Positions 7,049 to 20,788 of a stretch of DNA of 32,000 bases are shown here, piece by piece. The DNA comes from Candidatus Arthromitus sp. SFB-mouse-Japan (GTDB taxonomy: Bacteria > Bacillota > Clostridia > Clostridiales > Clostridiaceae). The notes under the pieces are model-generated. The model did not search any database. It was given only the letters and a program-made list of their open reading frames with translations, and had not been told where the DNA came from. Numbering within the stretch: the first letter of the stretch is position 1; every line of letters starts with the position of its first letter. The stretch spans positions 120,001-152,000 of the forward strand of contig NC_015913.1 in assembly GCF_000270205.1 (NCBI RefSeq), written 5' to 3'. A program made the translations under genes and the position numbers.

Positions 7049-7364
7049 ACACAACCCTCTTGAGGGTATTGTTAATGAGTATTTGGAAATGCCCGTACCA
7101 GATGATTGGTATGAGAAAGATACTTTTGAAAGGATCAACTATATAAGAAATGAGAAGAGAGTAGGAAAACCTAGAAACAAAATATGTGTTATTGAGGTGT
7201 GGTGCGAATTACTCGAGGGGGACAAAAAAGATTTAGATCAACGCAAAAGTCGTGAAATAACAACCCTGATACTTAAAAGCGGAGAGTGGGAGAGAGCAAG
7301 TATGATAAGAACTGGATATTTATACGGGAGACAAAGAGGATTCAAAAGGAAAAATTCATCCTAA
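7020..7364 (+). pseudogene. Displaced C-terminal segment of the VirE primase-helicase (+1 frame relative to 4862-7048)
   Basis: This frame is open from 7020 and reads ..ESHTKHNPLEGIVNEYLEMPVPDDWYEKDTFERINYI...ICVIEVWCELLEG...GEWERASMIRTGYLYGRQRGFKRK. From memory, that pattern forms the contiguous C-terminus of full-length VirE proteins. There is no convincing RBS before ATG 7089 or TTG 7083. Confidence 0.6.
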
Positions 7365-7640
7365 GTGTCAACACTTGCAACACTTGGAGCAACTGATATA
7401 TTGAAAAGTGTTGCTTCTCATAAAGCTTAAAATATAAGGCTTATAACTATATAAGCAACAATGTCAACACTTATATATATAAAAGAGTATAAATAATAAA
7501 AATATATAGATATACAGAAATATAGATATATAAAAAATATATAACTATATAGAAAAAGTGTTCCTAGTGTTGCTCTGTTGACATTAAACGCTTGAGAATA
7601 GATAATACATAGGTTTGGGAGAGCAACACTTTCAGTTGAT
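7365..7640. repeat. Iteron-like array of (T/G)CAACACTT boxes flanking a ~10% GC core; candidate origin of replication or regulator-binding array
   Basis: Direct copies at 7368-7376, 7377-7385, 7464-7472 and 7623-7631. Inverted copies AAGTGTTGC at 7406-7414 and AGTGTTGC at 7566-7573, with a partial copy at 7556-7562. The core 7473-7555 has 8 G/C in 83 nt and contains the palindrome TATAGATATA twice (7505-7514, 7521-7530). Confidence 0.55.
7578..7606 (+). promoter_or_regulatory. Sigma-A-type promoter for the VRR-NUC/SNF2 operon
   Basis: TTGACA (7578-7583), 17-nt spacer, GATAAT (7601-7606). It is bracketed by the perfect inverted pair AGTGTTGCTC (7566-7575) / GAGCAACACT (7621-7630). Confidence 0.5.
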
Positions 7641-7658
7641 AATTTTAATGGAGTTTTT

Positions 7659-7967
7659 ATGTTAGAAAAAACTATTGAGAATTACTTTAAAATCAAAATT
7701 GAATCTAATGGAGGTTTGTGTATAAAACTAAATGGGTTTGTTGGCATACCAGATAGGTTGATCCTATTACCTAGTGGTAGAATATTTTTTGTAGAATTTA
7801 AGCAAAAAGGTAAAAAACCTCGTAAGATTCAAAGTTTTATACATGATAAATTAAGGAGTTTAGGTTTTAGAGTTTATGTTATAGATAATAAGGACAAAAT
7901 AGAGGAGGTTTGCAGGGAGTGGAATTTAGACCTCACAAATACCAAGAAGAAGCAATTAACAAGATAA
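7659..7967 (+). CDS. VRR-NUC domain nuclease
   Basis: 102 aa. GIPDRLILLPSGRIFFVEFKQKGKKPRKIQ carries the D...E-x-K signature of VRR-NUC. Confidence 0.85.
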   Translation: MLEKTIENYFKIKIESNGGLCIKLNGFVGIPDRLILLPSGRIFFVEFKQKGKKPRKIQSFIHDKLRSLGFRVYVIDNKDKIEEVCREWNLDLTNTKKKQLTR

Positions 7968-9259
7968 TTAAGATTGATAGATGTGGTTTATTTTTAGATA
8001 TGGGATTGGGTAAAACGGTTATAACTCTAACAGCTATTAATGATTTAATGTTTAATCGCTTTGAAGTCAATAAGGTTGTAATAATAGCACCTTTAAAAGT
8101 AGCAGAAGATACATGGGTTAAAGAGTTATCTAAGTGGGATCATTTAACTAATTTAAGCATGTCTCTTGTATTAGGAGATAAGAATAAGAGGATTAAGGCA
8201 TTAGAGACACAAGCAGATATATATGTGATCAATAGGGAGAATGTGTCTTGGCTTGTTACATATTTAGGTAGAGATTGGGATTTTGACATGGTGGTTATTG
8301 ATGAGTTATCCAGTTTTAAAAATCCATCTGCTAGTAGATTTAAGTCTCTTAAGAAAGTTATAGGTAAAAGTTCCAGGGTTGTTGGGTTGACGGGTACACC
8401 TAACCCTAATGGGTACATAGACCTTTGGGGTCAGATATACCTACTTGATAGTGGTGAGAGACTTGGTAAGACCTTGACTAGATTTAGGGATACTTATTTT
8501 GTACCTGATAAGAGAGATAGTTATAGGATATTTACCTATAAATTAAAATCTGGAGCGGATAAATTGATTAATAAAGAAATATCTGACATTTGTATAAGCA
8601 TGAAGGCTGATGATTATTTGGATCTACCAGATAAGATATTTGTTAATCACGAAATAAGTTTAGAAAATAGGCGGTCTTATGATGAATTAGAGAAAGAATT
8701 TTATTTTGAGTTTGATAAAGGATCTGAAGTTACAGCTGCATCTAAGTCAGTTTTAATTAATAAGTTATTGCAGTTATGTAATGGTGCAGTTTATACGGAT
8801 GGAGATAAATATCAGGTAGTGCATGATGATAAATTGGACAAGTTGGAGGAGATAGTTGAGAGTACTCTAGATAGTCCTATTTTATGTTTTTATCAGTATA
8901 AGCATGATCTGGATAGGATAATAAATAGATTTGATTTTGCGAAAGAGTTATCACAAGATAATATCGATGCTTGGAATAAGGGTAAAATTAAATTACTACT
9001 TACCCATCCAGCGTCTAGTGCTTATGGACTTAATCTACAAGATGGCGGCAATGTTATTGTGTGGTTTGGTCTTCCTTGGAATCTAGAGCTATACCAGCAA
9101 GCTAATGCCAGATTACACAGACAAGGACAAAGGCGTAATGTGTTTATACATCATTTGATTTGTGCAAATACTGTTGAGGAGAGAGTGCTAGATACACTAC
9201 AGCGTAAAGGTATAGTGCAGGATGAGTTATTAGATTACCTTGCTTTTAAATATAGATAA
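7910..9259 (+). CDS. SNF2-family (DEAD-like) helicase
   Basis: HKYQEEAI, Walker A DMGLGKT, DExx box VVIDELS, TGTP, and the C-terminal helicase motif QANARLHRQGQ. The start is TTG 7910 or, better spaced from GAGGAGG (7902-7908), GTG 7919. It overlaps the end of the VRR-NUC gene. Confidence 0.9.
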   Translation: MQGVEFRPHKYQEEAINKIIKIDRCGLFLDMGLGKTVITLTAINDLMFNRFEVNKVVIIAPLKVAEDTWVKELSKWDHLTNLSMSLVLGDKNKRIKALETQADIYVINRENVSWLVTYLGRDWDFDMVVIDELSSFKNPSASRFKSLKKVIGKSSRVVGLTGTPNPNGYIDLWGQIYLLDSGERLGKTLTRFRDTYFVPDKRDSYRIFTYKLKSGADKLINKEISDICISMKADDYLDLPDKIFVNHEISLENRRSYDELEKEFYFEFDKGSEVTAASKSVLINKLLQLCNGAVYTDGDKYQVVHDDKLDKLEEIVESTLDSPILCFYQYKHDLDRIINRFDFAKELSQDNIDAWNKGKIKLLLTHPASSAYGLNLQDGGNVIVWFGLPWNLELYQQANARLHRQGQRRNVFIHHLICANTVEERVLDTLQRKGIVQDELLDYLAFKYR

Positions 9260-9262
9260 GGA

Positions 9263-9697
9263 GTGTTTGATTTGGAATCGATTAAAGATTTGTTAGAGCA
9301 TATAAGATTTGCGGATCTAGAGATAAAGAGTTTGATGACTTTGAAGGATAGATTAGGAGCGAGAGCTCTAGCTATAACATCAAACATTTCGGAGAGAGTT
9401 AGCGGTAGTAAGGATATAGATGGTGTCTATAGTATTGTGGATGAGTATGTAGATTTAGAAAAAGTTATAATTGATAAATCTAAAGGATTACTAGAAGATA
9501 AGAAAAAAGCTTTTGATATTATTAATGGCTTGGATGATAATATGCATAGAATAGTCTTAATTGAGCGTTATTTCAATTCTGAGCCTTGGAAATCTATAGC
9601 TATACATATTAGTCGAAGTGAAAAAAGAACTCGTCAGATCCATGATAAAGCGATTAAATTATGTGAGATAAGGAGAGAGACTGATGTACGATTATGA
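9263..9697 (+). CDS. Sigma-70 region-4-like phage transcriptional activator (DUF1492/ArpU-RinA-like), probable late regulator
   Basis: The C-terminal IVLIERYFNSEPWKSIAIHISRSEKRTRQIHDKAIKL is a region-4-type HTH. Its position just upstream of the packaging genes is typical of late activators. The start is uncertain (GTG 9263 or TTG 9272). Confidence 0.6.
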   Translation: MFDLESIKDLLEHIRFADLEIKSLMTLKDRLGARALAITSNISERVSGSKDIDGVYSIVDEYVDLEKVIIDKSKGLLEDKKKAFDIINGLDDNMHRIVLIERYFNSEPWKSIAIHISRSEKRTRQIHDKAIKLCEIRRETDVRL

Positions 9698-9896
9698 TAA
9701 ATTGATAGATTTGGTAGTTGAAAAGCGAAAAGAGAAGGGTTGGTATCAGTATGATTTAGCTAATGCAGTTTATATGAATGCTAGGATTATATCTAGGATT
9801 GAGAGTAAGCGGAATGTGGTTAAGTTAGATACGTTTTTATTAATGCTTGAAGCTTTAGATTGTGAAATTGAAATAAGACCTAAGAAAAAATTTTAG
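9684..9896 (+). CDS. XRE-family HTH protein
   Basis: 70 aa. KGWYQYDLANAVYMNARIISRIESKRNVVKLDTFLLMLEAL fits the HTH_3 pattern. It overlaps the upstream gene by 14 nt. Confidence 0.7.
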   Translation: MYDYDKLIDLVVEKRKEKGWYQYDLANAVYMNARIISRIESKRNVVKLDTFLLMLEALDCEIEIRPKKKF

Positions 9897-9898
9897 CG

Positions 9899-9927
9899 TT
9901 GCTTGAGATGTAAAATCTTGATAAAAT
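9899..9927 (+). promoter_or_regulatory. Candidate sigma-A promoter of the Zn-ribbon/SHOCT gene
   Basis: TTGCTT (9899-9904), 17-nt spacer, TAAAAT (9922-9927), immediately after the stop of the preceding gene. Confidence 0.4.
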
Positions 9928-9973
9928 ATCCGTAACAAATATTTAACATTTATATTTGAGAGGATGTGTTTTT

Positions 9974-10690
9974 TTGGGGTTATTTGGTTCTAAGAAAAAA
10001 TGTGTAGCTTGTGGTGTAGGTGATGCTAAGCATAAAATAGCAAATAAAGAAGAGATATGCAAAACGTGTACTAGTAGATTAAGGGTAAATATTTTTAGCT
10101 TGAAGAAATTAACGTCTCGAGAGATTAAAGAATTTTTGTGTGATTTGGACTCATTTACTGTTACTAAAAGTGTATCGTTTTATCTGGAAGTTGATGAAAA
10201 AAATAAGAAGTTTTTAGCACCTTTATCCAAGCGTAAAATTTATGACTTTTCTCAATTAGTTGATTTTGAATTGCTTGAAGACGGCGAATCACTTGCAAAG
10301 GGAGGCTTAGGTAGAGCCTTAGTGGGAGGTGCTCTCTTTGGAGGGGTTGGTGCTATTGTTGGAGGTGTCACTGGTAAGCGTAAGGGTAAAAACATATGCA
10401 ATAGTCTGAGGATAAAAATAACTTTAGATGATATTAGCGATCCTGTTTTATACATAGATTTTATTAATGTGAGGACAGATACAAACAATCCTTTTTATAA
10501 AAATATTTTTAATTCTGCCCAGGAGTGTTTATCTATTTTGCAAGTTATATCTAATAATACACCTGATGTTTCTGTCGATACTGGTGTATCCAGTGCTGAT
10601 GAGATTCTTAAGTTCAAAGATCTATTAGATAAAGGAGTAATAACACAGGAGGAATTTGATTTAAAAAAGAAGGATTTATTAGGATTATGA
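9974..10690 (+). CDS. Zinc-ribbon (DUF4428-like) / glycine-zipper / SHOCT-domain protein, function unknown
   Basis: Preferred start is TTG 9974, with GAGAGGA 9 nt upstream, giving MGLFGSKKKCVACG...CKTC (CxxC...CxxC). Central glycine zipper GGLGRALVGGALFGGVGAIVGGVTG. C-terminal SADEILKFKDLLDKGVITQEEFDLKKKDLL matches the SHOCT motif. Confidence 0.7.
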   Translation: MGLFGSKKKCVACGVGDAKHKIANKEEICKTCTSRLRVNIFSLKKLTSREIKEFLCDLDSFTVTKSVSFYLEVDEKNKKFLAPLSKRKIYDFSQLVDFELLEDGESLAKGGLGRALVGGALFGGVGAIVGGVTGKRKGKNICNSLRIKITLDDISDPVLYIDFINVRTDTNNPFYKNIFNSAQECLSILQVISNNTPDVSVDTGVSSADEILKFKDLLDKGVITQEEFDLKKKDLLGL

Positions 10691-10699
10691 GTATGTTAG

Positions 10700-10745
10700 A
10701 GAGAGGAGATTTTTTTAATGGGATCCTCTCTTTTATATTTTTTTA
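10700..10745 (+). terminator. Rho-independent terminator
   Basis: The stem AGAGAGGA (10700-10707) pairs with TCCTCTCT (10724-10731). It is followed by the T-rich run TTTATATTTTTTT. Confidence 0.6.
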
Positions 10746-10752
10746 AAAACAC

Positions 10753-10797
10753 TTCCGTAAATTTCCCAAAAGTTCCGTAAATTTCCCATCATTTCCA
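10753..10797 (+). repeat. Helically phased direct repeats upstream of terS (candidate pac/TerS-binding or late-promoter element)
   Basis: TTCCGTAAATTTCCCA occurs at 10753-10768 and again at 10773-10788, with a partial copy ATTTCCA at 10791-10797. The TTCC core recurs at 10753, 10763, 10773, 10783 and 10793, an exact 10-bp period. Confidence 0.7.
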
Positions 10798-10853
10798 TCT
10801 TGCGTTGTGAGATAATTAGAATGTGAAAATTTGTGATAACGAGGAGGTGAGGT

Positions 10854-11276
10854 ATGACTAAGAAGCAAGAAAGATTTATAATTGAATATCTAATTGATTT
10901 GAATGCGACTCAAGCTGCAATTAGATCAGGTTATAGTAAAAAGACTGCGTACTCGATTGGGAGTGAACTGCTGAGCAAACCTGAGATAAAATCACGCATT
11001 GAGGGGTATATGCAAGAAATGAAGAGTGCTAGAGTAGCAGAACTTGAAGAAGTACTTGAGTATCTCACGTCTGTTATGAGGGGAGAATCTAGGGCTTGTG
11101 TAGTTGCTGTTGAGGGTACTGGTGATGGATGCTCATCTGCCAATATAATTAGTAAACCTCCAGATGAGAGAGAAAGATTGAAAGCTGCTGAGTTACTTGG
11201 TAGGAGATATGGGATGTTTAATGATAAACTTAAGGTTGATAGTGTTATACCTGTTGTTATAAAGGAGGACTTATGA
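10854..11276 (+). CDS. terS: Terminase small subunit (P27/Terminase_2 type)
   Basis: MTKKQERFIIEYLIDLNATQAAIRSGYSKKTAYSIGSELLSKPEIKSRIE is the classic N-terminal HTH of this family. RBS GAGGAGGTGAGG precedes the start. Confidence 0.9.
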   Translation: MTKKQERFIIEYLIDLNATQAAIRSGYSKKTAYSIGSELLSKPEIKSRIEGYMQEMKSARVAELEEVLEYLTSVMRGESRACVVAVEGTGDGCSSANIISKPPDERERLKAAELLGRRYGMFNDKLKVDSVIPVVIKEDL

Positions 11277-11704
11277 GGACTTTTGCAAGTGGAGCTATAA
11301 GAGATGACAATGATTGTAAGGGTAGATGCGATTTGATACCCCTTGATATTGTGATTAATGTAAAAGAGGATAAGCCTTTAAATTTAATACATAATTTTAA
11401 AGTATCGGGAGAAGTAGAGCATCTTATTGATTTATTAAAATTAGAAATGAATGAAGATATATATAATGTTTTGTTGGATGTTAGTCATAGGTTTGGCTTA
11501 GGTGCAATTAAATATGGAGACCATAATTGGCAAAAAGGTATACCAGCTAATGTGTATATTGATAGTGGTACTAGGCATTATCTTAAGTACATGAGGGGTG
11601 ATGATGATGAAGATCATCGTGCTGCGTATATCTGGAATATTATGTGTTGTATTTGGACATGCGAGCATTTACCAGAGCTAAATATATATGCTAAAATCGC
11701 CTAG
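11273..11704 (+). CDS. DUF5664-like protein (domain related to the N-terminal domain of dATP/dGTP diphosphohydrolases; MazG-like all-alpha fold suspected)
   Basis: FASGAIRDDNDCKGRCDLIP ... GAIKYGDHNWQKGIP...DSGTRHYLKYMRGDDDEDHRAAYIWNIM matches my recollection of the KYG..NW.kG...RH....G...EDH.aA..wN signature. The ATGA start overlaps the terS stop. Confidence 0.55.
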   Translation: MRTFASGAIRDDNDCKGRCDLIPLDIVINVKEDKPLNLIHNFKVSGEVEHLIDLLKLEMNEDIYNVLLDVSHRFGLGAIKYGDHNWQKGIPANVYIDSGTRHYLKYMRGDDDEDHRAAYIWNIMCCIWTCEHLPELNIYAKIA

Positions 11705-11715
11705 AAGGCGTTGAT

Positions 11716-12966
11716 TTGATGGTAGAGATATCTTTAAAAGATGTTGTAGGTAAGGGGTATAAGGATTTTTGGAAGTTTACAGGACGGTATAGAGTTGTTA
11801 AAGGTAGTAGAGCTAGTAAGAAATCTAAGACTACAGCTTTGTATTATATAGTTAATCTTGTGAAGCATCCTAAAGCTAATCTATTGGTTGTACGTAAAAC
11901 TTATAGGACACTTAAGGATTCGTGTTTTACGGAGCTTAAATGGGCTATAAATAGATTAGGTGTACAGGATTATTTTGATATTAAAGAGAGTCCTTTGGAG
12001 ATTATATACATACCTACAGGGCAAAGGATTTATTTTAGAGGTTTAGATGATCCATTTAAAGTAACATCGATCACAGTTGAGGTTGGTTATTTATGTTGGA
12101 TGTGGCTTGAGGAAGCTTATGAGATCAGCAATGAAGATGATTTTAATGTTTTGGACGAATCTATAAGGGGTAGCTTAGAAGCTGCTCCTTTTTTATTTAA
12201 ACAAATAACTCTCACACTAAATCCTTGGAATGAAAAGCATTGGATTAAGAAAAGGTTTTTTGACACTAAGGATGATGAAATTTTAGCTATGACGACAAAT
12301 TATATGTGTAATGAGTGGCTAGATAAATCTGATTTAAGAGTGTTTGAGACTATGAGTATCAATAATCCTAAAAGATATAAAGTCGCTGGATTAGGTGAGT
12401 GGGGTATAGTTGATGGACTTGTATATGATAATTGGGTAGAGCAGAGTTTTGATTTGAATGAAGTGCTAAAAATATCAGGTATACAATCAGCGTTTGGATT
12501 AGATTTTGGTTACACCAACGATCCATCAGCTTTGTTTTGTGGACTTATTGATAATGCTAATAAGATTATTTATGTATTTGATGAGATGTACCAAAAGAGT
12601 ATGTCTAATGAGGATATATATAATGAGATATTGAAACAGGGGTATGCAAAAGAAAGAATAATAGCTGATAGTGCTGAACCTAAATCTATTGATAGGCTTA
12701 GAGTATTAGGTCTCCATAGGATTAGAGGAGCTAGAAAAGGTCGAGATAGTGTTAATAATGGTATTGATTATATACAGGGATTTAAAATTGTAATACATCC
12801 CAAATGTGTGAATTTTTTGATTGAGATCAACAACTATACTTGGGATGTCGATAAGAGGACAGGTCAAAAGATTAATAAGCCTATTGATGATTTTAATCAT
12901 TTGATGGATGCTATGAGATACGCACTAGAAGGGTTTATAAGAGGTGATATATTTAGTTTTGATTAA
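11716..12966 (+). CDS. terL: Terminase large subunit (PBSX/XtmB family)
   Basis: Walker A-like VVKGSRASKKSKT; Walker B-like WMWLEEA; C-terminal RNaseH-like nuclease region GLDFGYTNDPSA ... DDFNHLMDAMRYAL. The start is TTG 11716 or ATG 11719. Confidence 0.93.
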   Translation: MMVEISLKDVVGKGYKDFWKFTGRYRVVKGSRASKKSKTTALYYIVNLVKHPKANLLVVRKTYRTLKDSCFTELKWAINRLGVQDYFDIKESPLEIIYIPTGQRIYFRGLDDPFKVTSITVEVGYLCWMWLEEAYEISNEDDFNVLDESIRGSLEAAPFLFKQITLTLNPWNEKHWIKKRFFDTKDDEILAMTTNYMCNEWLDKSDLRVFETMSINNPKRYKVAGLGEWGIVDGLVYDNWVEQSFDLNEVLKISGIQSAFGLDFGYTNDPSALFCGLIDNANKIIYVFDEMYQKSMSNEDIYNEILKQGYAKERIIADSAEPKSIDRLRVLGLHRIRGARKGRDSVNNGIDYIQGFKIVIHPKCVNFLIEINNYTWDVDKRTGQKINKPIDDFNHLMDAMRYALEGFIRGDIFSFD

Positions 12967-12973
12967 TAATAGG

Positions 12974-13005
12974 GGCTATTGCAAAAAAACGCAACAGCCG
13001 CTTTT
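12974..13005. terminator. Probable bidirectional terminator between convergent terL and the antisense cassette
   Basis: GGCTATTGC (12974-12982) pairs with GCAACAGCC (12991-12999) with one mismatch, around an A-rich 8-nt loop. T-run on the right and A-run in the loop. It follows the triple stop TAA TAA TAG of terL. Confidence 0.45.
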
Positions 13006-13006
13006 A

Positions 13007-13486
13007 TTAATCTTGTTCTTTTTTAGAGGATTTAGGTATTATTTTTAATTCACATCCTAAAATATCTATTATTTTGAGTAGAGTGTTTAATTGTGGGGAA
13101 GAACTTTTGTTTTCGATTCGGGCTATAGCTGATTGAGGTAAATTACAAGCAGTGGCTAGATCATGTTGAGTCATATTATTTGATTTTCTTTGTTGGATAA
13201 AATCGTAGATAAATTGGTTGTATGTATGGTTTGGAGAGTCTATTATAGTGCTGTTTTCATATAAGTGTTCTGGAGATATATCTAAATCGTCGTTCCACAC
13301 GACAGTACCACACTCTATTTTGGCTTTAGAAAATAGCACGGGGTTTTTTAGAGGTTCAAATATTTTTGTATCTAATAGAGGATTAAAATCAAAAATTCTT
13401 GTTGATCCGTCAGAAAAATTAAGTATTAGCCTGTAATCAGGTGTAGGTTCTACTTTTGTAACAACCCACATGGGTATATTGTTCAT
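13007..13486 (-). CDS. DUF2442 domain fused to a C-terminal XRE-type HTH
   Basis: The N-terminal VEPTPDYRLILNFSDGSTRIFDFNPLL...FEPLKNPVLFSKAKIECGTVVWNDDLDISPEHLY matches the DUF2442 pattern. The C-terminal MTQHDLATACNLPQSAIARIENKSSSPQLNTLLKIIDILG is an HTH_3. RBS AAGGAG lies 8 nt upstream of ATG 13486. Confidence 0.8.
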   Translation of the reverse strand: MNNIPMWVVTKVEPTPDYRLILNFSDGSTRIFDFNPLLDTKIFEPLKNPVLFSKAKIECGTVVWNDDLDISPEHLYENSTIIDSPNHTYNQFIYDFIQQRKSNNMTQHDLATACNLPQSAIARIENKSSSPQLNTLLKIIDILGCELKIIPKSSKKEQD

Positions 13487-13514
13487 GGCATAGACTCCTT
13501 TTTGTATTGTTTGT

Positions 13515-13547
13515 TAAATAGATCCACTATCGTAGTGGATCTATTTT
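13515..13547. repeat. 33-bp perfect palindrome (15-bp arms, 3-nt centre)
   Basis: TAAATAGATCCACTA tcg TAGTGGATCTATTTA. It spans the stop codon of the DUF4160 gene (13527-13529) and the short spacer before the DUF2442-HTH gene. Confidence 0.9.
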
Positions 13548-13781
13548 AAAATAATCTCCTTCTCTCATTAAGCTCCAATTTGCTATGAGTTCATCTTGGT
13601 GTATCTCAATCCACGCGACAATAAGTTTTTGATGCCTGGTGCTCATTTCTCCATCAGTTAATTTACCATCAAAGTTAAATACAGCTTTATAATTTTGATA
13701 CTCAGCGTGTAAATGCGGCGGATTGTGTTCATTCCAGTTCATGCGTATGATTATTCCGTAAAATGATGATATGACTGGCAT
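13527..13781 (-). CDS. DUF4160-family small protein
   Basis: From Met 13781 the ORF reads MPVISSFYGIIIRMNWNEHNPPHLHAEYQNYKAVF, the family-typical start and PPH.H motif. RBS GAGGT lies 7 nt upstream. The ORF-track extension to 13841 begins inside the -35 box of the promoter and is rejected. Confidence 0.8.
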   Translation of the reverse strand: MPVISSFYGIIIRMNWNEHNPPHLHAEYQNYKAVFNFDGKLTDGEMSTRHQKLIVAWIEIHQDELIANWSLMREGDYFKIDPLR

Positions 13782-13812
13782 TTTTGTACCTCGCTTTCGA
13801 TTTAATAATTTA

Positions 13813-13841
13813 ATTATATCAAATTCGATATAATTTGTCAA
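13813..13841 (-). promoter_or_regulatory. Consensus sigma-A/sigma-70 promoter with extended -10, driving the antisense cassette
   Basis: On the minus strand: TTGACA (13841-13836), 17-nt spacer, TGaTATAAT (-10 hexamer 13818-13813). The inverted repeat AATTATATC-N6-GATATAATT (13812-13835) overlaps the -10 and spacer. Confidence 0.7.
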
Positions 13842-13876
13842 TGTAGAGGTCTATAAAATGGGAGGGAGTTGGTTAG

Positions 13877-15265
13877 TTGGACAAAAGAATTGTAGAGCTT
13901 GATATAGCAAGGTGGAGGACAAGTCTTAAACGTAAGATAATGATTGATGGAGAAAGGTATTATAGAGGAGATCATGATATTTTAAGGCGTAAGAGGACTG
14001 TCATAGGGGATAACGGAGATCTTAAAGAAGTTGATAATCTACCTAATAACCGTATTGTAGATAATCAGTATAAAAAGATGGTTAACCAGAAGGTTGATTA
14101 TTTACTTGCCAAGCCTTTAACTCTTGAATGTGACAATAAAAAATATTTAAGTTTGCTTAAAACAATTTTTAATAAACGATTTCAAAGGATTTTGAAAAAT
14201 GTTGCCGAAGATGCCCTTAATTGTGGTCTAGGTTTTTTATTTGTCTATTATGATGATCTTGGAGAGCTTAATTTTAAGAGATTTAAGCCCTATGAGGTTA
14301 TACCGCATTGGTTAGATGACGAGCATACTAAATTAGACTATTTAATTAGGTGTTTTAGCGTCGAGATTTTTGAAAATAATATGTATCGTTTAGTTGATAA
14401 AGTGGAAGTGTATTCTTCTAACGGGATTGATTATTATGAATATACAAATGGTAATTTAAAACCCGTTGAACCTTATCATAATAATTATTTTACACGAGTT
14501 GTAGATGGCGTGGAAAATCATTATACGTGGGATAAGATACCTGTCATATCTTTTAAATATAATCATAAAGAAATACCTCTTATTAAAATGGTCAAAACCC
14601 TTCAAGATGGGCTTAATCTCATCGAATCTAATTTTCAAAATCAGATGGAAGAGGACGCAAGAAATACAATCCTGATACTTAAAAATTATGATGGTGAAAA
14701 TCTAGGAGAGTTTAGACGCAACTTAGCTACTTACGGAGCTATTAAGGTTAGGACTGAGTCTGGAGCTGATGGTGGTGGAGTTGATGCCTTGCAGGTTGAA
14801 ATCAATGCAGATAATTATAGGACACTCTTAGATGTGTTTAAGAAAGCCATTATTGAGAATGCTATGGGTTATGATGCTAAAGATGAAAGACTCTCAGGTA
14901 CTCCTAATCAGATGAATATTTTATCTATGTATTCGGATATTGAATTAGATGCGAACTCTATGGAAACTGAGTTCCAAGCCTCTCTTGAAGAATTATTGTG
15001 GTTTGTTAATGTGCATTTTGGACTTAAGGGATTAGGTAATTACGATAGCAGTATAGTTGATATTATTTTTAATCGAGATATTTTAATATCTGAGAGCGAT
15101 GTAATTGATAATTGTGTTAAATCGATAGGTATTTTATCCAATGAAACTATATTATCTCAACATCCTTGGATATCTGATGTTGATTTAGAGCTTAGGAGAC
15201 TTGATGAGCAAAAACAGATGGAGTTAGATTCTTTTGGATTTGGAGAAACTCCTGAGGATGAATAA
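13877..15265 (+). CDS. Portal protein (SPP1 gp6-like)
   Basis: MIDGERYYRGDHDILRRKRTVIGDNGDLKEVDNLPNNRIVDNQYKKMVNQKVDYLLAKP matches the SPP1-type portal N-terminal signature. TTG start, with GGGAGGGA upstream. Confidence 0.92.
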   Translation: MDKRIVELDIARWRTSLKRKIMIDGERYYRGDHDILRRKRTVIGDNGDLKEVDNLPNNRIVDNQYKKMVNQKVDYLLAKPLTLECDNKKYLSLLKTIFNKRFQRILKNVAEDALNCGLGFLFVYYDDLGELNFKRFKPYEVIPHWLDDEHTKLDYLIRCFSVEIFENNMYRLVDKVEVYSSNGIDYYEYTNGNLKPVEPYHNNYFTRVVDGVENHYTWDKIPVISFKYNHKEIPLIKMVKTLQDGLNLIESNFQNQMEEDARNTILILKNYDGENLGEFRRNLATYGAIKVRTESGADGGGVDALQVEINADNYRTLLDVFKKAIIENAMGYDAKDERLSGTPNQMNILSMYSDIELDANSMETEFQASLEELLWFVNVHFGLKGLGNYDSSIVDIIFNRDILISESDVIDNCVKSIGILSNETILSQHPWISDVDLELRRLDEQKQMELDSFGFGETPEDE

Positions 15266-16841
15266 TTATTGGAAAGATAGATTTCTTTCCTTAGAAAAAG
15301 CATCCCATAAAATAGGTGTTGAAACTTATAAAGAGATAGAAATTGCATTTGATAGAGCTCAAAGAGAGATAGAAAAAGAGATTGAATCCTGGTATGGTAG
15401 ATTTGCTAAAAATAATAATATCGATATGGTTGAGGCCAAGAGAATCCTAAATACAAAAGAGCTTAAAGAACTTAAGTGGGATGTTAATGAGTACATAGCA
15501 AAGGGACGAGAAAATGCAATTAATCAGAAATGGATGAAAGAACTAGAAAACGCATCTGCTAGATTTCATATAAATCGACTTGAAGCTTTAAAACTTAGGA
15601 TGCAACAATCTGCTGAATTAGCTTTTGGCAATCAACTAGATTTAGTTGATGGCTTAGTTCATAAGGTATTTACAGAGAATTATTACCGGAGTATATTTGA
15701 AATCCAAAAAGGGTTCAATGTAGGTTTTAAGGTTTCTGAGATTGATGATAATTTACTCAATAAAATAATATCTAAACCTTGGGCTAAAGATGGTAAAACT
15801 TTTTCTGAGAGAATATGGGGATCTAAGGATAAATTAATTAATGAGCTGCATGCTGATTTAACTCAGAATGTTTTATTAGGCAAACCACCTAAGGATCTTA
15901 TAAATAATCTTGTTAAAAAATTTAATACAACTAAAGCTAACGCTAGCAGGTTGGTGATGACCGAGCTAGCGTTTTTTCATACAGTTTCGCAGAGGGATGC
16001 CTTTAAGGAGCTTGGTTCTGAGCAATATACGATACTAGCAGTACTTGATAATAAAACATCCTTAGTTTGTCAAGATTTTGATGGTAAGGTATTTGATACA
16101 AAGGATATGTCTATTGGTATAAATGCACCTCCTTTCCATCCTAATTGCAGGAGTGTAATCTTACCTTATTATGATGACGATTACGAGATTGGTGAGAGAA
16201 TAGTAAGTGGTGATGATGGTAAGTCAGTGTATTACGTGCCAGAAGATATGAATTATAAGGAATGGCATGCTAAATATGTTGATGGAGTTAGCGTTAAAGG
16301 AGTAAAGCCTCCTGAGAAGAATTATAAGACAATCTCTATTAGTGATTTAACTAGGTTCCAGGATTTAAGTAATTTGTGTTTCAAAGCGTTTATGGAAAGT
16401 GAAAAGGATACTTTACGATTTTATACAGATGATGGTTATAGTGTTATAAATGCCTCGCTTCAAAGTGGCGATATATCTGACGATATTTGGGATAAAGTTA
16501 AAAATATAGATGACTCTATAGAACGCTTTGAATTATCCGAAGATATAATAGTTTACAGGGGAACTAAGATGGATTATTATAAAGATGTTAAGGTTGGAGA
16601 TATAATTGATGCTAAAGTGTTTTATAGCACTTCGTTTTTAGAATATATAGCTCAGGATTTTGCCGATCAACTTAATAATCCAGTTATGTTAGAAATAAAG
16701 GTTCCTAGCGGCACTAAATCCCTTTACATAGGCTATAATAGTTCTGTAGGTGATGAAGCAGAATTATTACTCAGCAGGCATTTAAAATATAGAGTTTTGA
16801 AAATGGAACTTGGAAGATTATTTTTAGAAGTGGAGGAGTAG
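15258..16841 (+). CDS. Head morphogenesis protein (Mu F / SPP1 gp7 family) fused to a C-terminal ADP-ribosyltransferase (R-S-ExE, exoenzyme C3/Alt-like)
   Basis: Mu-F core: SERIWGS...RLVMTELAFFHT...LDNKTSLVCQDFDGKVF...PPFHPNCRSV. ART domain at about 16401-16838: YSVINASL, VYRG (Arg codon 16557-16559), YSTSF (S-T-S 16626-16634), DEAELLL (E-x-E 16755-16763). ATG 15258 overlaps the portal stop. Confidence 0.88.
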   Translation: MNNYWKDRFLSLEKASHKIGVETYKEIEIAFDRAQREIEKEIESWYGRFAKNNNIDMVEAKRILNTKELKELKWDVNEYIAKGRENAINQKWMKELENASARFHINRLEALKLRMQQSAELAFGNQLDLVDGLVHKVFTENYYRSIFEIQKGFNVGFKVSEIDDNLLNKIISKPWAKDGKTFSERIWGSKDKLINELHADLTQNVLLGKPPKDLINNLVKKFNTTKANASRLVMTELAFFHTVSQRDAFKELGSEQYTILAVLDNKTSLVCQDFDGKVFDTKDMSIGINAPPFHPNCRSVILPYYDDDYEIGERIVSGDDGKSVYYVPEDMNYKEWHAKYVDGVSVKGVKPPEKNYKTISISDLTRFQDLSNLCFKAFMESEKDTLRFYTDDGYSVINASLQSGDISDDIWDKVKNIDDSIERFELSEDIIVYRGTKMDYYKDVKVGDIIDAKVFYSTSFLEYIAQDFADQLNNPVMLEIKVPSGTKSLYIGYNSSVGDEAELLLSRHLKYRVLKMELGRLFLEVEE

Positions 16842-16844
16842 CAA

Positions 16845-17051
16845 ATGAGCAGAGCTTGGTTTGATATTACTGAGTATTTTAGGCAACGTGGGAAAAACTG
16901 GAGCAACTTGAATGATCAAGAGAGAGAGGTTTGGAGGGCTGCTTATAGAGAACAGTTTGGGAAAGAGTACAAACCTAGAACTCTTGCAGATCGTTGGGCT
17001 AGAGAGGATCTGACACCTACCATAATCCATAGAGAAAAGAGAGATTCGTAA
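16845..17051 (+). CDS. Hypothetical 68-aa Trp/Arg/Glu-rich protein
   Basis: The ORF begins 4 nt after the ART gene stop. Hand count gives 87 G+C in 207 nt (42%), versus 18/60 (30%) in a nearby line. No recognised domain. Confidence 0.5.
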   Translation: MSRAWFDITEYFRQRGKNWSNLNDQEREVWRAAYREQFGKEYKPRTLADRWAREDLTPTIIHREKRDS

Positions 17052-17083
17052 TATAAATATGATTGTGTATTGGGGTGGTAGTT

Positions 17084-17425
17084 TTGGCAAAAGATGATTA
17101 TTATGTGATTGTATATAAGCTTTTATCTTATTTGTATAGTTGTTTGAAAAAAGGCACATATGTAGACATTGAGAATCTAAGAGATGTTATAAAGGTAGAT
17201 ATAGTAGATTCGTATTGGAATTACATAATTCTAGAGTTATATAAAGAGGGATATATTGATGGAATTACTAAAATTAAATATATAGGTGATATCAATGAGA
17301 ATGTTAAAATTAACAAAAATATCAGAATTAAGCCTAAAGGAATTGAATTTTTAGAGAGCAATTCATTTGTTGCTAAAGCTAAAGAGTTTATAAAAGAAGC
17401 GGGGGAAATATTATTTTGGTTGTAA
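17084..17425 (+). CDS. YjcQ-family protein (winged-helix-like, function unknown)
   Basis: (M)AKDDYYVIVYKLLSYLYSCLKKG...YWNYIILELYKEGYIDGIT...IRIKPKGIEFLESNSFVAKAKEFIKE matches my recollection of phage YjcQ-family proteins. Preferred start is TTG 17084 after GGGGTGG; the ORF is open from 17063. Confidence 0.6.
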   Translation: MAKDDYYVIVYKLLSYLYSCLKKGTYVDIENLRDVIKVDIVDSYWNYIILELYKEGYIDGITKIKYIGDINENVKINKNIRIKPKGIEFLESNSFVAKAKEFIKEAGEILFWL

Positions 17426-17458
17426 ACACTACTAATTGATTCGGTAGTGTTTTAATTT
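17424..17458 (+). terminator. Hairpin terminator after the YjcQ-family gene
   Basis: AAACACTAC (17424-17432) pairs with GTAGTGTTT (17444-17452) around an 11-nt loop, followed by TTTTAATTT. Confidence 0.5.
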
Positions 17459-17485
17459 GATTAAATTGTGATATAATTATATGAT
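17457..17485 (+). promoter_or_regulatory. Candidate promoter of the Panacea-domain gene
   Basis: TTGATT (17457-17462), 17-nt spacer, TATGAT (17480-17485). An alternative extended -10, TGaTATAAT, lies at 17469-17477. Confidence 0.45.
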
Positions 17486-17510
17486 ACTTGTTTGCAGAAG
17501 GAGGTTTGTT

Positions 17511-18188
17511 ATGAGAGGTGTTATGGAGTATGCAAAGTATTTTATGCAAAAGGCTACTGGGTTAGATAATACTCTTGATGGTAATATGAAATTGCAAAAA
17601 CTCTTAACGTTTGCTAATTTAATAAATATCGCTCTAAACGATGAACCTTTATTTAGTGAGACAATGCGAGCATTTAAGAATGGATGTGTAATAGAAACTG
17701 TACGTTTAAATTACCGTGAATGCTATCAATCTTTGAAAGAGGCTAGTAAGACATTTAAACCTAATTTTTCAAATTCGGAATTTGAAATTTTAGATTTGAC
17801 TTTAGGTATATTTGATAAGCTGTCTGCAAAAGAATTATCGAATTTAAATCATGAGTTTGAGTTTTGGGAAAATGCTTATAAAAGATATAAAAGTACCAAT
17901 GATAGCGTAGACTCAAATATAAGCGAAGATGAAATAAAAAATGAACTTCATGTGATAAAATCCATTATAGATAGTTACAAGAATAGAGATAATAGTATGC
18001 TTGTAGAGAGGGTTAATGGTATTGATTTTTTTTATGATCCTAAGAATTTAGATATAGATGGATTTGTTTTTGTATCCGGAGAAGAAGTAAGCATTTTAGA
18101 TGAACTTTATGAGTTTTCTTTGTCTGAAGAGGCTGAAGATAATTGTTATACTATTTATTTAGATGAAGGGGAGCTTGTTATATTTTGA
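17511..18188 (+). CDS. Panacea (DUF4065 / GepA / SocA-like) domain protein with an unrecognised acidic C-terminal domain
   Basis: ATG 17511 lies 6 nt after AAGGAGG. The N-terminal EYAKYFMQKATGLDNTLDGNMKLQKLLTFANLINIALNDEPLFSETMRAFKNGCVIETV fits the KLQKLLYfa...lf.e.f.Aw..GPV pattern of the family. The C-terminal ~95 aa are D/E-rich with no recognised motif. Confidence 0.7.
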   Translation: MRGVMEYAKYFMQKATGLDNTLDGNMKLQKLLTFANLINIALNDEPLFSETMRAFKNGCVIETVRLNYRECYQSLKEASKTFKPNFSNSEFEILDLTLGIFDKLSAKELSNLNHEFEFWENAYKRYKSTNDSVDSNISEDEIKNELHVIKSIIDSYKNRDNSMLVERVNGIDFFYDPKNLDIDGFVFVSGEEVSILDELYEFSLSEEAEDNCYTIYLDEGELVIF

Positions 18189-18266
18189 ATTTTAAGGATG
18201 AAATATTATTAAGATTAGATCAATATGAATTAGAACAAGCTTATATTGATTTAGGTATTGATTTTT

Positions 18267-18296
18267 AAACACTGTTTATTTAGCAGTGTTTTTTTA
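18267..18296 (+). terminator. Rho-independent terminator
   Basis: AAACACTG (18267-18274) pairs with CAGTGTTT (18284-18291) around a 9-nt loop, running into a T7 tract. Confidence 0.65.
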
Positions 18297-18384
18297 TGCC
18301 TTTTTGGTATTGTAGGCGAATAAAGAACAAGACAAAAAGAACTGGACTGAACCAGGTGAAAAATGATTTTGAAAGGATTTTACT

Positions 18385-18984
18385 ATGAAGAAAGATGATT
18401 TTTTAAAATTAGGGTTAGATGACGAAATAGCGAAAAAGTGTGAGGCTGCATCGCTTGAAGAACTTAAAGAGTATATACCAAAAAGTAGGTTTGACGAAGT
18501 TAATAGTGCTAAGAAGAAATTTGAATCTGATGTAAAAGATAGAGATAAACAATTGGAGGATCTTAAGAAATCTACAGGTAATATTGAAGATCTTAAAAAG
18601 CAGATTGAATCTTTACAAAAAGAAAATAAAGAGAAGGCTGAGCATTATGAATTAGAGATGCAAAAACTTAGAGTAGATACAAAAATAGAGTCTACCTTAT
18701 CTAATTTTGGTGCGAGGAATATTAGATCTGTTAAAGCATTACTTGATGGGGTTGATAAATTTAAATTTGACAAAGATGGAAATATTGAAGGGTTAGAGGA
18801 TCAGATTAAGCAAATTAAGAAATCTGATCCTTATTTATTTGCTAATAATGATACATCGTCTGTTAAAGGTGTAAAGCCTGTCGAATCTACAGCTGAGGCT
18901 AAATCAGTTGATGTAAATAATATGACGTACTCTGAGTTAGTGTCTTATATGTCTAATAACCCAGATTTTAAACTTAATAATTAG
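18385..18984 (+). CDS. Scaffolding protein (phage GP20-like)
   Basis: MKKDDFLKLGLDDEIAKKCEAA... followed by a long coiled-coil-like K/E-rich region (DRDKQLEDLKKSTGNIEDLKKQIESLQKENKEKAE). It lies immediately upstream of the capsid gene. Confidence 0.8.
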   Translation: MKKDDFLKLGLDDEIAKKCEAASLEELKEYIPKSRFDEVNSAKKKFESDVKDRDKQLEDLKKSTGNIEDLKKQIESLQKENKEKAEHYELEMQKLRVDTKIESTLSNFGARNIRSVKALLDGVDKFKFDKDGNIEGLEDQIKQIKKSDPYLFANNDTSSVKGVKPVESTAEAKSVDVNNMTYSELVSYMSNNPDFKLNN

Positions 18985-18992
18985 GAGGTATT

Positions 18993-20051
18993 ATGAGATT
19001 TGATTCAAAACTTTTTAATCCACAAGCATTTGGTAGTTATGTAGACCGTATACCAAATGTGACTAAAAATGAATTAGCAAGGAGTGTTGCAGTTGGAACA
19101 AATGAGCAAGCAGCGAGATCATTATCCACTCAAACAGGATCTTTATATACGAGAGTACCTTATTTCGGAAGGATAAGTGCTCAAACATCTCAAAACAATG
19201 ATGGTGCTACTGATATAACATCTACAAATACATCAACTTATTCTCAGGGATTTGTTGTTGCTAGCAGGATGGATGGCTGGACAGAGCGTAGTTTTAGTAA
19301 AAATATTACTGCAGGCGTTGATTTTATGGATAACGTTGCTAAGCAAATAGCAGATTATAAAATGGAAGTTAAGCAAAATATATTGTTAGCTATGCTTAAA
19401 GGTATTTTTTCTATGTCTGTTGGTACAAGTACAATAGAGGAGCAAGCGGCTAAAGAATTTATTGAAAAGCACACTTATGATTTAAGTGCTAAAACAGGTG
19501 ATGACAGCAAGGTTAGCTCATCCACTTTAAATAAAGCTATACAGCAAGCTTGTGGAGATAATAAAAATATTTTTAAACTCGTTATTATGCATTCCGAGGT
19601 GGCAACTAACTTGGAAAACATGAAGTTACTTAAATATATGACTCAAACAGATGCTAATGGTATTGAGAGGGAACTATCTCTTGGGACTTGGAATGGTAGG
19701 ATTGTACTAATAGATGATAATATGCCAGTTGATAGTACGACTAAAAACACACCTACGTATACAACTTATGTGCTAGGTGAAGGATCTATTATTTTAGATG
19801 ATATTGGTGATGCCTTACCTTATGAAATGTATAGAGACCCTAAAACCAAGGGAGGTCAGGATACGTTATATGTTAGAGATAGATTTGTTTGTGGAGTAGA
19901 CGGGATTAGCTTTGAAAAACCAGCTACGATAACTGCATCAGCTTCTAATACCGATTTATCTACAGGAGCTAATTGGTGTGTTATAAATGATGGCGTTAAA
20001 TCTATACCGCATAAAGCTATAGCAATCGCTAGAATTTTATCTAAGGGATAA
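18993..20051 (+). CDS. Major capsid protein
   Basis: 352-aa ORF directly after the scaffold gene, with RBS AGGAGG. Size and position are typical. The family was not resolved by eye. Confidence 0.75.
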   Translation: MRFDSKLFNPQAFGSYVDRIPNVTKNELARSVAVGTNEQAARSLSTQTGSLYTRVPYFGRISAQTSQNNDGATDITSTNTSTYSQGFVVASRMDGWTERSFSKNITAGVDFMDNVAKQIADYKMEVKQNILLAMLKGIFSMSVGTSTIEEQAAKEFIEKHTYDLSAKTGDDSKVSSSTLNKAIQQACGDNKNIFKLVIMHSEVATNLENMKLLKYMTQTDANGIERELSLGTWNGRIVLIDDNMPVDSTTKNTPTYTTYVLGEGSIILDDIGDALPYEMYRDPKTKGGQDTLYVRDRFVCGVDGISFEKPATITASASNTDLSTGANWCVINDGVKSIPHKAIAIARILSKG

Positions 20052-20057
20052 ACAGCT

Positions 20058-20438
20058 GTGTTAAATTTGGTAATTGAGAGATTAAATTATTTAAATTATA
20101 AGGTTACTCAGAGTGATCTCTATATTATTAAATTCCTAATCTTAAAAGAGGGAAATATTATTAGGATCGATTGCAATATAACTGATATACCTGAGGAGCT
20201 ATCTTATATTCTTGTAGATAGGATAGTAGGTGCTTTCCTCCGTGAGAAGAAAATTGTTGATCCTGAGAGCCTTATTGGTATTGATTTAGATACTCAAATT
20301 AAACAGATACAAGAGGGAGACACCAATATTACATTTAGCGATAAGTCTAAGACCCCTGAAGAGCGTTTTGATGAGCTGATTAACTATTTGGTTAATAAGG
20401 AGGTAGATTTAGCATGCTATCGCAGGCTCAGATGGTGA
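20058..20438 (+). CDS. Head-tail connector/adaptor protein (by position)
   Basis: 126-aa ORF after the capsid gene, in the usual gp6/gp15-like slot. GTG start. Confidence 0.45.
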   Translation: MLNLVIERLNYLNYKVTQSDLYIIKFLILKEGNIIRIDCNITDIPEELSYILVDRIVGAFLREKKIVDPESLIGIDLDTQIKQIQEGDTNITFSDKSKTPEERFDELINYLVNKEVDLACYRRLRW

Positions 20439-20788
20439 GAATAAGAAAAGCAAAAGAGATAATGTATATTGGTTTGTGTACCATCGTTGAATACCATAAG
20501 GTTAAGCAAGCAAACCAATCTACAGGATTTACTGAGGTAGCTGTGTTTGAGGATATACCTTGTAAGTTATCTTTTAAGAGTGCACCTAGCGTACTCGAGA
20601 GTGATAAGGCTTCGGCTTTAACTCAATCCATAAGCTTGATATTAGCTCCGGAGATTGAAATAAATCCTGGAAGTAAAATTATAGTGACTCAAAATGGAGT
20701 TACTAAGGCTTATAAAAATAGTGGAGTACCTGCTGTATATACGACTCACCAAGAAATAATGCTTGATATTTTTAAGGGGTGGAGCTAG
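20414..20788 (+). CDS. Head closure / head-tail joining protein (by position)
   Basis: 124 aa. AAGGAGG lies 9 nt upstream of ATG 20414. The size and beta-rich sequence are typical of SPP1 gp16-like proteins. Confidence 0.5.
   Translation: MLSQAQMVRIRKAKEIMYIGLCTIVEYHKVKQANQSTGFTEVAVFEDIPCKLSFKSAPSVLESDKASALTQSISLILAPEIEINPGSKIIVTQNGVTKAYKNSGVPAVYTTHQEIMLDIFKGWS

Follow-up and report, generated by a model that had tools for sequence, protein, structure and literature searches.

What are two small minus-strand genes doing in the middle of a phage packaging module, between the terminase and portal genes? The locus that raises this question lies in a 32,000-nucleotide stretch of the genome of Candidatus Arthromitus sp. 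SFB-mouse-Japan (contig NC_015913.1, positions 120,001 to 152,000), here called the window and numbered from its first nucleotide, which, judged from its sequence, is a prophage of a mouse strain of segmented filamentous bacteria (SFB). The interval between terL, the gene for the terminase large subunit (11716-12966, plus strand; Terminase_3 E 2e-57, Terminase_3C E 7e-30), and the portal gene (13877-15265, plus strand; SPP1_portal E 3e-88) is occupied by two minus-strand open reading frames (ORFs), a toxin-like one first and an antitoxin-like one second. A prediction made earlier from the nucleotide sequence alone (the original prediction) had put this pair forward as a candidate for an undescribed system. 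With good confidence, our analysis points to a toxin-first type II toxin-antitoxin (TA) operon of the DhiT/DhiA (DUF4160/DUF2442) family, carried as a moron in a terL-portal insertion hotspot of the mouse SFB prophage. Because that family has already been named and tested, the cassette is a fresh example of a known system, of the subtype whose antitoxin is fused to a helix-turn-helix (HTH) domain, and not an undescribed one.

A DUF4160 gene followed by a DUF2442-HTH gene

The first gene (13781-13527, minus strand) starts with the ATG at 13781, ends with the TAG at 13529-13527 and encodes an 84-amino acid, single-domain DUF4160 protein homologous to the toxin DhiT. It matched the Pfam DUF4160 profile (PF13711) with E 9e-22 over residues 9-69 of 84, the NCBIfam model toxin_DhiT with E 8e-16 and 58.4 bits over positions 1-79 of 84, and phrog_14333 with E 3e-41. 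Thus, the earlier DUF4160 assignment stood, but the length of 85 residues given with it did not. All 33 homologs in our toxin alignment (A1) open with Met-Pro, most of them with MPVIS, which identifies the ATG at 13781 as the start; a GAGG lies 8 nt 5' of it. A 104-amino acid version of the same frame (13527-13841), listed mechanically as opening with a TTG, was rejected, as that TTG is the -35 box of the promoter described below. The residues invariant in A1 are M1, P2, S5, F7, G9, H19, P22, H23, H25, G44, W57, I60, W69, and L83, and the N-terminal Met-Pro together with the H19/H23/H25 cluster suggests a small enzyme, or an active or metal-binding site. In the AlphaFold2 (AF2) model of the toxin (mean predicted local distance difference test score, pLDDT, 93), five strands are followed by two helices. 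A phmmer search of the toxin against PDB sequences returned chance matches only, and structural hits to HIT hydrolases (E 3-6) were too weak to be treated as evidence.

The second gene (13486-13007, minus strand), the candidate antitoxin and autorepressor, begins 40 nt after the first on the same strand, with an AAGGAG 9 nt before its ATG. Its 159-amino acid product carries a DUF2442 domain at residues 9-79 (PF10387, E 1e-16) and an HTH_3 domain of the XRE type at residues 98-147 (PF01381, E 1e-12), so that the fusion proposed in the original prediction was borne out by Pfam profile search. The protein also matched phrog_29047 with E 1e-113 and, weakly, the NCBIfam DhiA model (17.3 bits, positions 3-73 of 160, the DUF2442 part only). 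An exhaustive HMMER search returned 2917 relatives, and roughly 22 representatives among the top 150 clusters covered nearly the whole query; these were taken to be DUF2442-HTH proteins, and 21 of them, 147-181 amino acids long, were aligned (A2). The best matches among PDB sequences were HigA, HipB, and HigA2, and the A2 profile matched HigA (6AF3) with E 1e-21. The best PDB fold match of the AF2 model (pLDDT 91) was 2AUW (NE0471), which aligned across both domains (2auw_A/B in Foldseek; E 3.9e-6, probability 1.00, 155 columns); HipB and HigA2 came next. Because HigA, HipB, and HigA2 lead the sequence matches and HipB and HigA2 come directly after 2AUW by fold, we assign the C-terminal half to the antitoxin-type XRE HTH domains, and the match of 2AUW across both domains means that the two-domain architecture is already known structurally. 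The DUF2442 domain is presumed to be the toxin-binding part.

The association of the two families is general. A DUF2442 ORF directly follows the DUF4160 gene on the same strand in 69 of 80 genomic loci from many phyla, in agreement with the earlier statement that the families commonly co-occur, and a published survey likewise places a DUF2442 gene after most DUF4160 genes and reports no confident structural homolog of DUF4160 (PMC12065111). The fused form is paired as well: each of the fused homologs P0123, P0125, P0130, and P0168 has a DUF4160 gene directly upstream, outside phages too, and one fused homolog adjoins ruvAB on a chromosome (L188).

The view that neither family has a known experimental function, on which the idea of an undescribed system had leaned, is outdated, since pairs from Dickeya and Thermus have been tested. 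DhiTA of Dickeya dadantii 3937, described in 2021, is a toxin-first, co-transcribed DUF4160/DUF2442 pair in which DhiT inhibits growth of Dickeya and E. coli, co-expression of the partner abolishes the effect, and the dhiTA promoter is repressed by ca. 50% by the antitoxin and by 70-99% by the complex (PMC8198452). A Thermus thermophilus plasmid pair, reported in 2025 and consisting of an 87-amino acid DUF4160 and a 92-amino acid DUF2442 protein, increases plasmid persistence and has the same effect when moved to another vector; without the second ORF, the plasmid could not be brought into Thermus (PMC12724237). DUF4160 is, furthermore, listed among the effector domains of the Menshen antiphage system, in its NsnC proteins (PMC12065111, 2025).

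An autonomous promoter with a candidate palindromic operator

The cassette has its own promoter of the sigma-70/SigA type, TTGACA-17-TATAAT (13841-13813, minus strand), which matches the consensus at 12 of 12 positions (-35 box, 13841-13836; -10 box, 13818-13813) and includes an extended -10 TG at 13821-13820. Transcription is expected to start near 13806. This is the only exact consensus match in the window; when one mismatch was allowed, two matches were found compared to 0.71 by chance. The consensus promoter facing the late operon, noted in the original prediction, was thereby confirmed, as was the inverted repeat over it: a 24-bp palindrome, AATTATATCGAA|TTTGATATAATT (13812-13835), with arms of 12+12 nt that are 92% complementary, fills the promoter spacer and overlies the -10 box. 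From its position and symmetry, it is presumed to bind a dimer of the antitoxin HTH domain.

The operator candidate is conserved where the surroundings are not. In a prophage from the chicken gut (L184, introduced below), all 29 promoter nucleotides are identical even though the flanks have diverged and toxin identity falls to 74%. In L005, L092, and L093, TTC replaces the central TTT and makes the palindrome perfect, while L183 and L184 retain its core. Within the window, a search allowing up to three mismatches gave a single copy (0.03 expected), and of 195 loci, 20 have a match to the core at the cassette promoter, with one further site in L158. Being conserved in diverged cassettes and unique in the window, the operator points to a dedicated autorepressor rather than a general phage regulator, and there is sequence-level support for an operon promoter autorepressed by the antitoxin and by the complex. 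Thus, the predicted type II TA layout, in which a small toxin-like gene and a DNA-binding partner share their own promoter with a palindromic operator, was supported. Among SFB prophages, the HTH-bearing antitoxin goes with the self-promoted antisense pair, and partners without an HTH go with pairs that are co-directional with the operon around them.

Two hairpins accompany the genes. A long hairpin (12961-13012) separates terL from the antitoxin gene, whose stop codons (12966 and 13007) converge there; inverted arms of 22+22 nt form it, and its G+C core is at 12974-12999. On the minus strand, the promoter and terminator scan marked it as terminator-like. It folds with -25.7 kcal/mol in minus-strand RNA (z -7.6) and -23.2 kcal/mol in plus-strand RNA (z -6.6), well below shuffled controls in both cases, a G-U pair of the former being an A-C mismatch in the latter. 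An analogous hairpin is present in L184. The element is probably a bidirectional terminator or insulator. The earlier note had called it the cassette's terminator; the strong hairpin is there, but termination is plausible rather than certain because the minus-strand tail lacks a clean U-run. A scan of the cassette and its borders with Rfam models gave only a sub-threshold chance match (RF02615, 25 bits compared to a gathering threshold of 155).

The other hairpin (13516-13546, minus strand) has a perfect 14-bp stem and a 3-nt loop (-17.8 kcal/mol, z -7.65) and takes in the final codons of the toxin with its stop and 14 nt of the intergenic spacer, with no U-run after it. It may affect mRNA processing, stability, or the translational coupling of toxin and antitoxin. 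It is also present in L005, L183, and L184, whereas L092 and L093 have lost it together with a few flanking bases; such a palindromic element is prone to deletion. As a family-wide feature it was rejected, since stop-codon stems in 79 other DUF4160 genes were not above control.

The cassette is an insert at the terL-portal junction

We compared 80 viral contigs whose terL is 58-98% identical to that of the window. In most of the relatives containing portal, the portal match begins 50-170 nt past the terL match, and only two SFB-type contigs have a 910-nt gap holding the cassette. Because terL and portal are adjacent in most of the related phages, those with a 58-75% identical terL, the cassette is an insert, as had been proposed. 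The same junction holds unrelated cargo in other contigs, which makes it a hotspot for accessory genes: a 263-amino acid ORF in L067 (5291-6082), ca. 2.6 kb of ORFs in L071 (5220-7716) and L072, and an ORF of about 120 (123) amino acids in L087 (5214-5585). All of this other cargo is co-directional with the late genes. The two genes of the cassette are the sole opposite-strand genes in the gene calls of the near-identical 16.5-kb loci L002-L004, which agrees with the ORF list of the window and with the claim that they are its only minus-strand genes. We read the cassette as an autonomous accessory gene cassette, or moron, in a terL-portal insertion hotspot, and the idea of an autonomous antisense insert within the packaging module is supported.

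The antisense placement has a consequence for the late genes. The portal start is only 35 nt from the -35 box of the cassette, and a promoter scan found no plus-strand promoter-like site between 13000 and 13877. With no such site and so short a gap, transcription reaching portal must cross the terL-side hairpin and the entire cassette in antisense.

Natural variants and paralogous pairs

The same antisense cassette occupies the terL-portal junction of a chicken-gut 'Candidatus Dwaynia gallinarum' prophage (L184; also L185-L187), with the 74% identical toxin mentioned above. Its antitoxin is split (6296-6763 in L184) into an 83-amino acid DUF2442 ORF and a 70-amino acid HTH_3 ORF that share one frame and are parted by a single stop codon and one more codon; the halves are 59% (DUF2442) and 67% (HTH) identical to those of the window protein. 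On the late strand beside this cassette lie HicA/HicB, a Dam methylase, and a gene with a Sequestin domain.

Other variants have damaged toxins. In two IMG/VR contigs, L092 (the same contig as L012) and L093 (the same as L011), a 34-nt deletion takes away the end of the toxin with its stop and the hairpin spanning it and leaves the toxin in frame with the antitoxin, producing a 247-amino acid ORF (the toxin region is at ca. 4990-5270 in both). The toxin starts with GTG in these variants, and L093/L011 has an additional premature TAA within it, yet the antitoxins remain 98-100% identical to that of the window. Decay of the toxin with retention of the antitoxin is the pattern that TA biology would predict. 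The protein cluster P0121 (202 amino acids, 36 members) is probably the extended antitoxin ORF of such variants.

Some related SFB prophages carry more than one pair. L001 (also L006-L009) has two further DUF4160/DUF2442 pairs, at 9759-10335 and 11716-12445, both co-directional with the packaging genes; one is between the dGTP_diPhyd_N gene and terL, where the window has an empty site (11704-11716), and the other upstream of terS. Their antitoxins, of 100 and 122 amino acids, lack the HTH, and one of these pairs has no room for a promoter, with only ca. 15 nt upstream of it. The toxins of the three L001 pairs are 45-54% identical to one another and to the window toxin, whereas the antitoxins are at most 35% identical or of undetectable similarity, which suggests pairs insulated from each other. 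For the two further pairs, the antitoxins reach at most 30% identity to the window antitoxin, or none that can be detected. In the third L001 toxin, Arg replaces the otherwise invariant His25. Downstream of the scaffold gene, L001 (417-2059; also L006-L009) also encodes an AAA_21 ATPase and a RloB-domain protein, a place taken by the major capsid region in the window and in L002-L004; the two genes resemble an AbiL-like pair.

Within mouse SFB strains, six loci carry the 921-bp cassette at 100% identity. Special conservation of the cassette among these strains was rejected, since the surrounding 12 kb is equally identical, and for the same reason this identity is uninformative on selection.

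The host prophage

The identical 159-amino acid protein was recorded in 137 sample blocks, AP012209.1 among the carriers, which is the complete genome of the segmented filamentous bacterium SFB-mouse-Yit (PMC3371716). Positions 9501-21486 of the window differ from SFB-mouse-Yit at two positions. The replication region at 5001-9500, with its VapE-like primase/helicase and SNF2 helicase, diverges by 2-19% per 500 bp in the same comparison, and at ca. 9500 a sharp mosaic boundary separates this divergent region from the near-identical 12 kb. When positions 11000-16000 were searched at the nucleotide level against a set of 50,697 phage records, nothing matched, so that there is no cultured phage to serve as a reference, and tblastn with both cassette proteins found only four to five distant phage records. 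A literature search on TA systems of SFB prophages yielded nothing relevant.

Several other genes of the packaging and head region are of interest in their own right. Between terS and terL lies a plus-strand gene (11273-11704) for a dATP/dGTP diphosphohydrolase N-terminal domain protein (PF18909), which keeps this position in SFB and chicken-gut prophages. At its C-terminus, the Mu F-like head morphogenesis protein (gene at 15234-16841, plus strand) has an ADP-ribosyltransferase exotoxin domain (ADPrib_exo_Tox, E 3e-23); in some related prophages (L001, L007), the protein is 594 amino acids long and without this domain. Inserted between the head-morphogenesis and scaffold genes are a YjcQ-domain gene (17063-17425, plus strand) and then a gene for a 235-amino acid SocA_Panacea protein, which has an antitoxin-type Panacea domain (17481-18188, plus strand). 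These two genes may be another accessory TA-like or defence pair of the late operon.

Proposed mechanism and weighing of alternatives

If the cassette is a DhiTA-type operon, the host sigma-70/SigA polymerase would make a single toxin-antitoxin mRNA from the promoter at 13841-13813, independent of, and against, the late operon. The DUF2442 domain of the antitoxin would bind and neutralize the DUF4160 toxin, while the HigA/HipB-like HTH dimer would block the promoter from the 24-bp palindrome; by analogy with DhiTA, the block is probably tighter when the toxin is bound as well. Should synthesis stop, the antitoxin would decay and the toxin would arrest growth; prophage loss, host shut-off by an infecting phage, and head-on late transcription after induction are possible occasions. 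After induction, antisense late transcription would collide with the cassette and silence it, which is a plausible link between the TA module and the phage cycle. The benefit is most likely prophage retention, abortive-infection-type competition with other phages, or both.

Several points weigh against the DhiTA assignment. Compared with the founding members through the NCBIfam profiles NF048015 and NF048016, neither protein reaches the equivalog cut-off (58.4 compared to 100 bits for the toxin, 17.3 compared to 200 for the antitoxin), and the pair is therefore a family-level homolog, not an ortholog, of DhiT/DhiA. Searches of PDB and BFVD with the toxin model gave no significant structural match, and from a fold without a recognizable relative the activity of the toxin cannot be read. 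None of the models in PADLOC-DB 2.0.0 matched the toxin. The fused protein can exist without a toxin, as P0136 and P0243 are solo DUF2442-HTH genes with no DUF4160 remnant upstream, and the toxin-inactivated variants mean that the toxin is dispensable in some lineages. Finally, the Dickeya study reports improved plasmid maintenance solely for ccdAB2 (PMC8198452).

The solo genes are also among the reasons to ask whether the pair is a phage regulator instead, with DUF2442-HTH repressing phage genes for immunity or late timing and DUF4160 a non-toxic cofactor. Its XRE HTH is of the kind found in phage repressors, with weaker matches to RstR, DicA, and CI-type PHROGs, and the cassette is within the late region, antisense to late genes. 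However, the operator palindrome is confined to the cassette's own promoter in the 32 kb and, apart from the site in L158, to cassette promoters in the loci surveyed; the two-gene unit also occurs on chromosomes and plasmids without phage genes, such as beside ruvAB; it is absent from related phages whose terL and portal are neighbours; and homologs are toxic in two experimental systems (PMC8198452, PMC12724237). We consider a purely regulatory pair highly improbable. More improbable still is an inactive, decaying hitch-hiker whose conservation reflects nothing but the recent common ancestry of mouse SFB strains. That idea accommodates the identity of the six loci and of their surroundings (the two differences from SFB-mouse-Yit) as well as the toxin-broken variants, but L183, at 78% nucleotide identity, and L184 each retain the two ORFs, the promoter, the operator, and the two hairpins in intact form, and the substitutions between these cassettes avoid the palindrome and the invariant toxin residues.

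The remaining alternatives concern what the module is for. A dedicated anti-phage module, acting by abortive infection or superinfection exclusion with the DUF4160 effector freed on host shut-off, is compatible with a TA mechanism, and we hold it as a tentative proposal. It can draw on the reported role of DUF4160 as a C-terminal effector domain of Menshen NsnC (PMC12065111), on a constitutive-type promoter that would be expected to fire in the lysogen, and on a neighbourhood rich in genes of conflict: the chicken-gut relative has HicAB, Dam, and Sequestin at this site, and the late region of related SFB prophages includes AAA_21 with RloB and SocA_Panacea, besides as many as three DUF4160/DUF2442 pairs per prophage. 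That neighbourhood is circumstantial, however, the literature found holds no phage-challenge data for any DUF4160/DUF2442 pair, and the lack of a PADLOC match for the toxin counts here as well. An addiction or selfish module, in which cells or phage genomes that lose the prophage segment are killed or outcompeted and retention of that segment is the sole benefit, seems to us possible but doubtful to a similar degree. It is in line with the transferable effect of the Thermus pair on plasmid persistence (PMC12724237), with homologs on 36 plasmids, 27 of them non-mobilizable, with the insertion of compact cassettes at several SFB prophage gene junctions, and with toxin-dead variants that keep an intact antitoxin, which fit anti-addiction dynamics. 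Against it stand the ccdAB2-only maintenance result in Dickeya and a selection that would be weaker than on plasmids, because an integrated prophage is rarely lost. The DhiTA-type operon that we favour could serve either end. A bolder version, which we regard as unlikely, is that DhiTA-type pairs form a phage conflict system in prophages of SFB and related gut Clostridia, with up to three insulated paralogs per packaging module, in which the antisense, self-promoted copy would sense late transcription. On induction or superinfection, head-on polymerases of the late operon and antisense RNA would silence this copy, its antitoxin would decay, and a His-cluster toxin of new fold and new activity would be released. 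If this were true, the locus would be a good entry to the mechanism of a widespread toxin family.

Significance

For annotation, the pair should read as a DhiT/DhiA-family type II TA module, not as two domains of unknown function. The locus adds a phage-borne example of the family in SFB, an immunologically important gut symbiont that is hard to culture, and, for the subtype with an HTH-fused antitoxin, a clear candidate for the operator. It also brings natural fused and split forms of the antitoxin that differ by an in-frame stop codon, and natural toxin-null variants and up to three paralogous pairs per prophage are now documented. What keeps the locus of interest is the biochemistry of the DUF4160 toxin, the occurrence of several pairs in one prophage, and the antisense position; being compact and well delimited, the cassette is a convenient test object for DUF4160 toxin action in a barely studied family.

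Comparison with known systems

DhiTA is the closest known counterpart. It has the same domain pair in the same toxin-first order and an antitoxin of similar size (160 positions in the DhiA model, 159 amino acids here), and its repression by antitoxin and complex matches the HTH and operator found in the cassette. A protein that matches positions 9-150 of the DhiA model ends in an HI1420-type antidote HTH, which suggests that DhiA itself is a DUF2442 domain with a DNA-binding tail. The dhiTA genes overlap by 3 nt, whereas those of the cassette are 40 nt apart with an intervening hairpin, and dhiTA is on a proteobacterial chromosome, whereas the cassette is antisense in the packaging module of a Firmicute prophage.

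The Thermus module shares the toxin family and the toxin-first order, and its first gene is tolerated only in the presence of the second. With the DUF4160 genes of the T. thermophilus plasmids AP025612 and AP025599, the window toxin shares 35% identity across 99% of its length; these are small plasmids and not necessarily those tested in the published work (PMC12724237). In contrast to the cassette, the Thermus antitoxin is a bare DUF2442 protein without an HTH, and the module is plasmid-borne with a role in plasmid persistence. Menshen NsnC has the same toxic domain family as its predicted effector, but NsnC combines several domains, with an inactive PIN domain (inPIN) at the N-terminus, and is encoded beside NsnA and NsnB, whereas the cassette toxin is a stand-alone protein of 84 amino acids; neither NsnA nor NsnB adjoins the cassette, whose neighbours are terL and portal. 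In PADLOC-DB 2.0.0, the antitoxin was matched through its HTH only (HTH_VI, RmrA, controller proteins, and CapH).

For the antitoxin, the nearest structural precedent is NE0471 of Nitrosomonas europaea (PDB 2AUW), a 2005 structural-genomics entry titled 'putative DNA binding protein', which has the same architecture of a DUF2442-like domain and a lambda-repressor-like HTH. The two proteins are only 19% identical and the whole-chain TM-score is 0.41, which is low because the domain orientation differs, and the entry title gives no function or partner toxin. The HTH domain itself is closest to HigA, HipB, and HigA2, and an HTH dimer on a promoter palindrome is the standard autoregulation scheme of HigBA and HipBA; HigBA is likewise toxin-first. 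The cassette departs from these systems in its toxin, as DUF4160 is neither RelE-like nor a kinase, and in an antitoxin that uses a separate DUF2442 domain, presumed to bind the toxin.

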